From: a virus
Direction: 5' to 3' (one strand)
Length of the DNA stretch: 31,094 nt
UHGV virus genome: UHGV-0087733
Position 1 is the stretch's first letter. The number at the start of each line of letters is the position of its first letter. Positions 6,001 to 9,000 of this stretch are shown piece after piece. Position numbers: made by a program.

Positions 6001-9000
6001 GCGTATAGCCAACATCATGGCTGACATCAAAACCGCTGGATCGCGTTTCCATAACCCGCATACCCGGAGGCGAATTCACAAAAGATACCTTGATCTCACC
6101 ATCAACTTTTGGCACAGAAGCTTTGTTAATCATGAAGGGATTCGAGCCTGTGGCATCGGAGGCGTTGTTTGCCTGAGCCGGATCCACCACCGGATAAGGA
6201 GTGTATCCCCGTGGCGGTATTCCCGTCCCATAAGCATCATAAGCACCCGCGCCCCACTGCGCCGAGTTAATGGCATCGACCGTGTCACCGGAACTGTCGG
6301 TAAACCATTCAATAATCGGCTTCAGCTTATCCCACATATCCTGAAACCACTTAACAACCGGTCCCCAGTTATTGATCACCATCCCAAGCGGCGACCAGGC
6401 AAAAACCTTCTTCAGAAGTTCCCAACCTGCCTCAAAATAAGGACCAATGGTTTCCCAGAGCTTCTTGAAATAAGGTCCGACAACATCCCAGTTAGTGATA
6501 ATTAATCCCGCAGCCAGAGCAATCGCCGTCGCAATCATGCCAATCGGCGTCATCGACATAATCCTGCTGACAATACTGATGGCACTGCCCACGCCCATCA
6601 ATCCCAGTTTCAGAATCGCAAGACCGGCAGCAAGCCCGACGACGCCGCGAATAACCCGGGGATTTTCATCCGCAAACTTCGTGAATTTCTCCCCCAACTC
6701 CCCCAGCCATTGTGTGATATTTTTAGCGTCACCAGAAAATGCGCCGCCAATAGCCGCAAGGCCGTTAGTTGCGGTCCCTGTCATTGCCTCCCACAGGTTG
6801 GACAGCGTACCAAGCTGTGCCTGAACACGTTTATTCAGGCTGGCCTGTTTATTCATCTTCTGCTGGATCTGATCGTAGCCATCCTTTCCTTTATCGATTA
6901 GTGCATTGACCACCTGAAGGGTTTCGGCATCATCACCAAATATTGCCTTAAGTACACCTGTTCGCTTAACGTCGGTCAGTTTTCGCAGCTTTGCCAGTTG
7001 CCTGAACATGTTATCAAGACCGCCAAAACTTCCTTTGCCGTCAGTAAAATCGAGCTGTACCCCGAGTTTCTGGCGGGCCATAACTTTATTAACGTCCCTG
7101 ATTTTCTTAACGCTTAATCCGGACTGGATAACTTTTCGCAGGGCATTACCTGCCGACTCCCCGTTCATCCCCATCTGATCCATCATGACGCTGATGGGGG
7201 CAAGGCTCTGTGCAGCCTGAAGACCATCCTTGTTCACCATCTTCAGAACAGAACTGGTTTTAGTGAAGAAGGACAACATGTTGGTATCGTCAACGCCCAG
7301 ATAAAACGCCTTCTGGATAGTGTCGAACAGCCCCATCATGTCTTCTGACGCCGTTCCGGTAGCATCCTGCATCTTTGCAGCAAACTCAGCAGCCGCTTCC
7401 GGTGTTTTTTTCAGTTGTACCGCAAGATAAGCTGTCGCTTTACCCACACCACCCAGAATGTTTTCTGCCGGGATCCCCTGACGCACCAGCATCTGCATCA
7501 TGTTCTGGAAATCAGCCGTTGTACCGGGTAGCTGGTTACCCAGGCCAATAGCCAGTTTATTGATGTCCTGAAAGCTCTTTCCAACCTCGCCATTCGCATC
7601 CATCATGGCGACTTTCAGCCCGGTGGCGGCGTTTTCCTGATCGGCATAAGATTTCAGGGAAAGCGTCAGACCCGCTGCCAGTCCGCCACCAAGCGCCAGC
7701 CCACCCTGTGACGCTTCTTCCGCCTGGCGTTTAAATCCCCGGATTTTCTTTTGCATTTTCGACAGCGCGGGAGAAAGCCTGTCGACACCGGTGATCAACG
7801 CCTTAAGCTCAAATTCAGCCATGTGTGCGTTTCTCCTGCTCTATCCTGTTTGCCTGACTGACCAGTAAGGGAATTTCACTGATCGGCATATTCAGCAATT
7901 CGAAAGGATTAATGCGCCAGTAGCTGGCGCAGTCAAAGAAGCGATCAGTGAGGTATTCAGCCGTCAGGCCTGGAGGAAAAAACCAGCCACAAGCCACGCC
8001 GCTGCATTCAGGTCTGCCGGAGACATCTGGTCGACAGAGCTTTGCGGCACTTTCGCCAGCCGCACAATGTATTTCGACACCACATGCGCCAGAAGTTTGA
8101 CTGACTCATCCTGATTCATCTGGTAGGGATACCCCAGCTCGCGGACATCCTTCCCGGTGGGCTCATCAAACTCCAGTACGGAGAGTGTCTCACCATGAGC
8201 GATAATCGGTTTCTTTAACTCAAGCTCTTTCATTACTGGTAATCCCCTTCTTCACCGTGGAACTCAAGATCAACCGTGCCTTCTTCGGCATTATGGTTCG
8301 CTTCGCCGTGCAGCCAGGCGGACGACAATACATAGACCTGACCGTTCGCCAGCTCGGCAGTGATGGTCATCTCATCAGACGAGGTGATTTTGCTCACCGG
8401 AAAATTCTTCGGCACCTTGAAGGTCCCTTTGACATAAGGCGCACGGTGAGTTTCCTTGCGGTCCACTGAACCGTCCAGGCCGATGATGTCATCATTGACC
8501 GTCCTGTTCATGGGCACCTCAATGCCGCCGGTCAGCGATAGCTGTTGACCGTCAATTTTGAAATAACAGGTTCCCCCGATACGGGCCATTATGCAGACTC
8601 CTCTGAATACTGAAGACGGAACTGGTTAACCACGGCAAAAACACGCAACTGGTTAACATAGTCAGGCGGGAACAGCGTGTTCAGGCGGTTCGGATCGCTG
8701 GCATCACGCTCCACAACCAGGTACTGCTTAAACAGTTCGTAGTTTTCCACGATCCCCGCACGCTCAAGCTGACGGTAGGTTGCCAGCAGTTCCCCTTTGA
8801 TCACCGCCGGTGTGACAATCGCCTGACCGGGACCAAAGCGGGTACCGTCGCTGGCAAGCTTGTGACGCCCGTACTTACTGGTAATGACGGATTTCAGTTT
8901 GCGCAGCACATACGCGCTGGTATGCAGCGTCTCGCTGTCGAGGTAAACAAGCGACGGTTAAGCTCCTGCTCCCAGTTCGTCACCCACGGCATCATCGTGT

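Follow-up and report, generated by a model that had tools for sequence, protein, structure and literature searches.

UHGV-0087733, very probably an SfV-like prophage that lost its head module through a single 5,240-bp deletion

The closest described relatives of the virus genome UHGV-0087733 are SfV, a temperate phage of Shigella/Escherichia, and the SfV-like prophages of Escherichia coli. Phages of the SfV group package their DNA from a cos site (PMC3851460). The stretch analysed here, in the following called the window, comprises the 31,094 nucleotides of this genome. It has the gene order of the SfV-like phages, and its DNA is 98-99% identical to that of the prophage of E. coli CDE6306. With SfV it has in common an HK97-family portal, a Mu-like tail (except for most of the sheath) and baseplate, the HNH-TerS-TerL set with cos, and a Q-dependent late operon. 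It differs from SfV in that 5,240 bp are absent, in its lysis cassette and immunity region, and by an added low-GC moron; at its integrase end, DUF551, Borvo and an integrase that relatives carry beside yjjG take the place of the SfV integrase. Very probably, the window represents the prophage of an SfV-like temperate myophage with one clean internal deletion of 5,240 bp, which would make it particle-defective.

A BLAST search with the whole window against SfV (NC_003444) yielded seven segments of 90-99% identity, which extend from the tail fibre to the early genes and cover most of positions 1-26401. On the minus strand the window is collinear with SfV and with intact E. coli prophages, and the only break is at 8942-8945. 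Window 5988-8945 corresponds to SfV 11611-8651, window 8942-12355 to SfV 3414-1, and the two segments overlap by 4 bases. The missing interval thus amounts to 5,240 bp, equivalent to SfV 3415-8654. The features at the break are these:

8942..8945, no strand: deletion junction, a 4-bp microhomology (GGTA on the plus strand, TACC in the sense of the genes) common to both breakpoints
8894..9964, minus strand: 3'-truncated HK97-family portal gene, residues 1-341 of 424, then 15 out-of-frame codons (8897-8941) from sheath DNA and a stop
8589..8945, minus strand: tail-sheath remnant, codons 381-498 and the stop; the first possible start is a GTG at 8909, which opens a reading frame (ORF) of 106 amino acids

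The sequence-only reading of the window had suspected a deletion junction within 8894-8960 and a loss of several kilobases. Both suppositions were correct: BLAST against SfV narrows the junction down to 8942-8945, and SfV, CDE6306 and the other intact loci all carry the missing bases, 5,240 of them in most cases (see below). A search for microhomology at the junction, which that reading had proposed, revealed the 4 bp TACC. In SfV the tetranucleotide is found at 3411-3414 and again at 8651-8654, and a three-way alignment shows that no base was inserted at the join; identity with the portal gene extends up to ...TTGTTTACC, and identity with the sheath gene holds from TACCTCGACAGC... on.

Intact relatives tell the same story. 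When window 8200-10100 was compared by megablast with phage and E. coli genomes, the query was split at its base 743-746. Its right part matched portal and TerL with up to 99.9% identity, its left part sheath and tube with 97.5-99.2% (phage records), and none of the phage and E. coli records gave a contiguous match spanning both. A query of 12,001 bases over the junction is covered to 100% by E. coli CDE6306, yet in two pieces that span 17,241 bases, i.e., 5,240 extra. Nine intact E. coli loci were compared, CDE6306 and eight loci retrieved via an identical TerL, and all nine show the same two breakpoints and the same 4-base overlap. Three of the intact loci carry 5,255 instead of 5,240 extra bases because of a 15-bp length variant. 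In L013, L016 and L018 the 100 bases on either side of the junction are 100% identical to the window.

The mutational event can be sketched with some reserve. In 200,000 simulated 5,240-bp deletions in the SfV genome, a junction microhomology of at least 4 bp was seen in 1.7%. The TACC overlap suggests, short of proof, a microhomology-mediated illegitimate recombination. A single RecA-independent event in an integrated prophage of the SfV type, between two TACC tetranucleotides at a distance of 5.24 kb, be it replication slippage or microhomology-mediated joining, would account for endpoints after portal codon 341 of 424 and before sheath codon 381 of 498. The pattern does not fit homologous recombination, site-specific recombination or transposition. 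A deletion mediated by an insertion sequence or by a site-specific recombinase was ruled out, the join being free of extra bases, inverted repeats and transposase remnants.

The portal ORF 8894-9964 encodes 356 amino acids with the C-terminus ...NRRLFTSTARRCIPARMCCAN. It had been read from the sequence as an HK97-family portal truncated at its 3' end, and Pfam agrees: the window protein covers positions 2-278 of the 321 in the Phage_portal profile, the SfV portal positions 2-321. By tblastn, residues 1-325 of the 408-residue PGAP annotation are retained at 99.7% identity. The SfV portal matches the solved HK97 portal structure (8cez/8fql) with E=1e-38, and in an alignment to the HK97 portal the loss starts near residue 344 of 424; the region lost presumably includes the C-terminal crown. 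The supposed non-portal tail of about 17 residues does exist, but it is shorter than was thought. It consists of the 15 residues STARRCIPARMCCAN, translated from sheath DNA, since the preceding F and T still are portal residues 340-341.

The portal ORF overlaps the sheath-like ORF (8589-8909, 106 amino acids from GTG) by 16 nt, and the latter adjoins the tube gene at 8233-8589, so that the sheath C-terminus, as had been described, runs straight into the tube gene. About 120 terminal sheath codons were thought to be joined to the portal; tblastn finds 118, residues 381-498 of 498, with 99.2% identity, of which 106 codons follow the first possible start. Alignment to full-length homologues thus places the cut after portal residue 341 and the resumption at sheath residue 381. 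A TAA at 8958-8960 terminates the sheath frame upstream and leaves it open only from 8957 onward, and the 25 nt upstream of the GTG at 8909 lack a Shine-Dalgarno motif of the GGAG type. In Pfam terms the fragment is Phage_sheath_1C only, in line with the expected C-terminal piece, while the full SfV sheath adds domII (beta-sandwich) and subtilisin-like domains. The sheath fragment is best treated as a pseudogene remnant.

A product identical to that of the 106-residue ORF is recorded on 11-13 contigs, and one of the records is named 'phage tail sheath protein [Escherichia coli]' (SQM68955.1). In the metagenome scaffolds L007, L009, L010 and L011 the 106-residue call directly follows a separate gene of 361-396 amino acids in sheath position, and this neighbour carries sheath Pfam domains where matches are recorded; a frameshift seems to have cut a sheath gene in two. 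On L006 the call comes after an uncalled gap that follows DUF2635. These scaffolds were rejected as independent evidence of the deletion, for the junction is present only on the window's own contig and on L004 among those shown. The 106-residue fragment alone is no marker of the deletion, because databases hold it for unrelated reasons such as split sheath calls.

The deleted DNA encodes the C-terminus of the portal, the prohead protease, the major capsid protein, the head-tail connector, head closure, tail completion and tail terminator proteins, DUF2635, and sheath residues 1-380. In CDE6306 the interval is annotated as portal, HK97 prohead protease, major capsid, connector, head closure, a hypothetical protein, tail terminator, DUF2635 and sheath; in SfV this hypothetical protein bears the annotation tail completion/Neck1. 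The deletion also takes away a terminator that the SfV annotation places behind the capsid gene. That prohead protease, capsid, connector and a full sheath gene are missing between portal and tube had been stated from the sequence and is confirmed by tblastn and Pfam. The loss goes beyond these head genes and extends to the genes for neck, tail completion, tail terminator and DUF2635 and to sheath codons 1-380. A tblastn search with all nine proteins of the interval found no further copy in the window, which excludes a transfer of the head genes to another place within it; their presence elsewhere in the same prophage had been named as an observation that would speak against a deletion.

The junction is rare. 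The exact fusion product, 340 amino acids long with a PGAP-style start, is found on 5-6 contigs from ENA and Logan, the longest being 48.6 kb; the 356-residue version (with the GTG start used in SfV) has no protein record. By exact search, the junction 30-mer (window 8930-8959) is absent from GTDB representative genomes, IMG/VR and JGI metagenome contigs, negatives that demonstrate rarity, not absence. Among 5,426 complete E. coli genomes of RefSeq, none has a place covering at least 80% of window 8200-10100. The identical TerL, by contrast to the 5-6 contigs of the fusion product, occurs in 3,742 indexed blocks of the collection; at each of the eight places shown, the head and neck module is complete, in the order 408-residue portal, protease, capsid, connector, head closure, completion, terminator, DUF2635, 498-residue sheath. 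As to the junction contigs, the window appears to be the reverse complement of positions 1-31094 of the ENA human-gut contig ERZ917916 k127_4342 (35,428 bp, run ERR866576), with 100% identity over the 19.9 kb compared; judged by coordinates and identity, this contig is not independent of the window. A Logan contig from a separate run, SRR18159040, is 100% identical over 15,953 bases, junction included.

The rest of the element appears to be in good order. The following genes are retained:

8233..8589, minus strand: tail tube gene, intact, 118 amino acids (Pfam Tail_tube positions 1-115 of 117; length as in SfV and CDE6306)
7964..8233, minus strand: tail assembly chaperone gene, intact, 89 amino acids (Pfam Phage_TAC_7, profile matched end to end)
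5990..7822, minus strand: tape measure gene, intact, 610 amino acids (Pfam PhageMin_Tail on an identical contig; length as in CDE6306)
308..5305, minus strand: Mu-like baseplate and DNA-circulation genes, intact, with nothing else annotated (Pfam DNA_circ_N, GpP-like, Phage_Mu_Gp45, GP46, Baseplate_J and Phage_Mu_Gp48 on an identical contig)
9906..12765, minus strand: packaging block, intact, with a 53-residue ORF, TerL, TerS, the cos position and HNH (Pfam TerL_ATPase, TerL_nuclease, Terminase_4, HNH)
10064-11797, minus strand: TerL, 577 amino acids, in the packaging block
11794-12297, minus strand: TerS, in the packaging block
12415-12765, minus strand: HNH endonuclease, in the packaging block
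12792..15846, minus strand: lysis cassette (two holins, GH19 endolysin, Rz, Rz1/LysC) and Q-type antiterminator, intact (Pfam on the identical contigs L003 and L004)
22613..23305, plus strand: CI-type repressor gene by position, 230 amino acids (the XRE family transcriptional regulator of CDE6306 has the same position, orientation and 693-nt length)
29633..30850, minus strand: tyrosine integrase at the prophage end (Pfam Phage_integrase, Arm-DNA-bind_3, Phage_int_M)

Window 1-17456 aligns to CDE6306 without gaps at about 98.5% identity, including the baseplate stretch 308..5305, and the region of the CI-type repressor aligns at 98.3%. The ORFs of the lysis cassette and of the Q antiterminator have the lengths of those in CDE6306. 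The ends of the SfV genome (positions 1 and 37074, cos) map to 12355/12356 in continuous sequence, so that the cos position is flanked by HNH on one side and by TerS and TerL on the other. The late operon is continuous from Q through lysis, packaging, portal fragment and tail genes. Of the Mu-like tail set, tube, chaperone, tape measure, DNA_circ_N, Gp45, GP46, Baseplate_J and Gp48 are full length, and of the sheath there is the C-terminal domain only. DUF968, RusA, Dam, PerC, replication and regulatory genes, a cro-like/cI-like pair, yfdP, yfdQ and yfdR are further genes of matching length. With one exception, the compared ORFs match annotated intact genes in length or differ from them by the choice of the start codon alone. 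The exception is the KilA-N gene (16857-17654), which has 265 amino acids versus 269 in CDE6306; the stretch 17457-17577 within it remained unaligned and is a small variable segment in a region otherwise 98% identical to CDE6306. The view that lysis, terminase and regulatory functions are still encoded therefore stands, these genes being full length.

From this inventory, repression and immunity, excision, replication and host lysis are predicted to be retained. Upon induction, excision, replication, expression of terminase, tube and baseplate, and lysis of the cell would still be expected. Neither capsids nor contractile tails should be formed, because capsid, protease, connector proteins, a functional portal, sheath and tail terminator are lost, and the element would be a dead end as a phage. 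We infer this inability to build particles from the loss of genes known to be essential. Being the only visible lesion, the deletion is arguably recent; the lack of further damage, together with the 100% identity of the independent contigs, suggests that it is also limited to one lineage.

Adjoining the integrase, 27367-29556 on the minus strand encodes a CHAT-domain protein of 729 amino acids. The PADLOC model BovA (Borvo anti-phage defence) is matched over almost its full length (E=2e-241), PHROG 34827 is matched as well, and the GC content of the gene is 31-38% versus about 52% for the phage. The same module of integrase and CHAT protein is found beside yjjG in several complete E. coli genomes on different phage backbones, e.g., in DCE7 with a lambda-like head module. 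A Borvo gene next to the integrase is a possible reason for the host to retain the element.

SfV lacks the low-GC insert (31.5%) that separates the tape measure from the DNA-circulation genes at 5330-5987. Its ORF (5396-5908, minus strand) encodes a protein of 164-170 amino acids with a hydrophobic N-terminus resembling a signal peptide; it yields no Pfam and no PADLOC match and corresponds to PHROG 8976 of unknown function. The insert is a moron unrelated to the deletion, because intact relatives, CDE6306 among them, carry it too. In the lysis region, 13144-15000 has no BLAST match to SfV, and Phage_holin_8, Phage_holin_3_7 and a GH19 endolysin replace S and R of SfV, which is a modular exchange within the family. 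Relatives with identical TerL have several lysis cassettes, and one of them, L017, bears a Kiwa insert (KwaA/KwaB). The immunity and early regulatory segments 20509-21084 and 22290-23822 do not match SfV either; since the repressor gene in cI position (22613-23305, plus strand) faces a cro-like gene (22255-22515, minus strand) and these segments are unmatched in SfV, the immunity type differs from that of SfV.

With tail fibre and integrase at opposite ends, the window shows the permutation of a prophage; it contains neither host genes nor tRNA genes. The integrase lies beside yjjG in E. coli DCE7 and CDE6306, and the CDE6306 prophage is flanked by prfC and yjjG. Compared with relatives that share this integrase, the window stops about 140 bp short of the place of yjjG, which would be expected if the assembly graph branches at the attachment site. 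Most likely, the element was integrated at the prfC-yjjG site in an E. coli from a human gut sample, as its gene order and relatives indicate. At the opposite end, window position 1 falls within the tail-fibre gene, and the Logan contig (SRR18159040) breaks off at precisely this base; an apparently invertible fibre segment, with opposed Caudo_TAP genes on L005, adjoins it. In prophage orientation, a gtrA, gtrB, gtrV cassette for O-antigen glucosylation and serotype conversion would lie past position 1; in the 1.1-1.4 kb beyond it on L003 and L005 none is seen, and only tail-fibre, fibre-assembly and Collar-domain genes are present.

Several points weigh against the interpretation as a deleted prophage or limit its details. 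The contigs with the junction are all short-read assemblies; the window itself was probably drawn from one or more of them, and only the Logan contig is clearly independent. A 4-bp overlap only modestly exceeds what chance alone would yield. The window contains no bacterial core gene, so that integration has to be deduced from gene order and relatives. An exact parent is missing, the best overall relative being 98.9% identical, and the ancestral state accordingly had to be reconstructed from mosaic relatives.

One competing explanation accepts the deletion but holds that it was kept by selection. In one version the prophage is domesticated: the host would retain immunity, the Borvo defence gene and morons, and virion production would be lost. 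In the other it is a helper-dependent parasite: with cos, HNH, TerS and TerL kept and about 86% of the SfV length, it could be packaged in the heads and tails of a co-resident SfV-like phage. In addition, a portal that has lost its crown might poison the portal rings of related phages upon superinfection. Full length of all remaining genes, the preserved cos and terminase genes, the full-length Borvo BovA gene adjoining the integrase and the abundance of related helper candidates in E. coli are compatible with such ideas. Yet the lysis cassette and the Q antiterminator, usually the first to be lost in domestication, are intact; satellite-type interference genes were not seen; and the retained tail genes would be useless to a satellite that borrows tails. 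The allele, moreover, is very rare (5-6 contigs versus 3,742 blocks with the identical TerL), and its copies show 100% identity, a pattern more in keeping with a young neutral lesion than with a lineage that is maintained. Selection is thus very improbable. Decidedly improbable, too, is the more specific idea that the element, its length about 14% below that of an SfV-sized genome, has just become a helper-dependent defective interfering prophage, which would be mobilised by an SfV-like helper and whose portal of 341 out of 424 residues could poison portal rings.

A trivial explanation would be that an assembler wrongly joined the portal and sheath genes of one intact or of two co-existing prophages. 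The window indeed appears to be drawn from a metagenome contig, E. coli abounds in SfV-like prophages of mosaic make-up, and neither the searches for the 30-mer nor the complete E. coli genomes of RefSeq disclosed the junction. However, a 4-bp repeat is unable to mislead an assembler at k=127, the runs ERR866576 and SRR18159040, processed by different pipelines, yielded the same junction with 100%-identical flanks over 15.9 kb, and contigs as long as 48.6 kb bear the fusion protein. With a 100%-identical contig from an independent sequencing run bearing the same fusion, we judge an artefact highly improbable. That nothing is missing at all, the portal normally ending here and the 106-residue ORF being a complete, conserved small protein, draws on the 11-13 contigs with the identical product, but its likelihood is practically negligible, since elsewhere this call stems from the 3' ends of apparently split sheath genes in metagenome scaffolds, all eight places shown for the identical TerL run from a 408-residue portal through to a 498-residue sheath, and the portal profile is cut at 278 of 321 with the last 15 residues stemming from out-of-frame sheath DNA.

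The deletion derivative of an SfV-like prophage thus remains the preferred explanation, and it has consequences primarily for annotation. The element should be listed not as an inducible phage but as a defective SfV-like prophage in which portal and sheath are pseudogene fragments, and the products of 340/356 and 106 amino acids should not be propagated as proteins. It might serve as a natural control in studies on prophage inactivation or on the persistence of lysis-competent, particle-defective prophages. The specific allele appears to be undescribed; the type of event is routine, and the type of phage is common and well described.

How, then, does it relate to known systems? Of the HK97 portal-protease-capsid module that characterises SfV-like myophages, only portal residues 1-341 remain. 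Because the head module is absent, the assignment rests on the rest of the genome, and the element is a deletion derivative, not a complete member of the group. Compared with its intact relatives it has lost genes of virion assembly, as is typical of defective prophages. It is not a phage satellite of the type of phage-inducible chromosomal islands (PICI) or P4: on either side of the lesion it shows 98-99% identity to complete prophages, it has kept most tail genes, and it is found on 5-6 contigs only. R-type tailocins are headless contractile-tail particles derived from prophages. Like them, the window has no head genes and has tube, tape measure, baseplate and lysis genes; unlike them, it lacks sheath residues 1-380, terminator and completion genes, and still has terminase, integrase and replication genes. 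A tailocin is excluded, as without these sheath residues, tail terminator and tail completion no contractile particle can be formed. The cryptic E. coli prophages DLP12, e14, Rac and Qin are old, heavily eroded and fixed in their lineages. They likewise lost morphogenesis genes by deletion and kept modules such as lysis, integrase and cargo. The window, in contrast, shows only one lesion, the remainder of the genome being complete, and this variant is rare. It resembles an initial stage of prophage decay, here resolved to the base, biologically ordinary and of little import beyond annotation.

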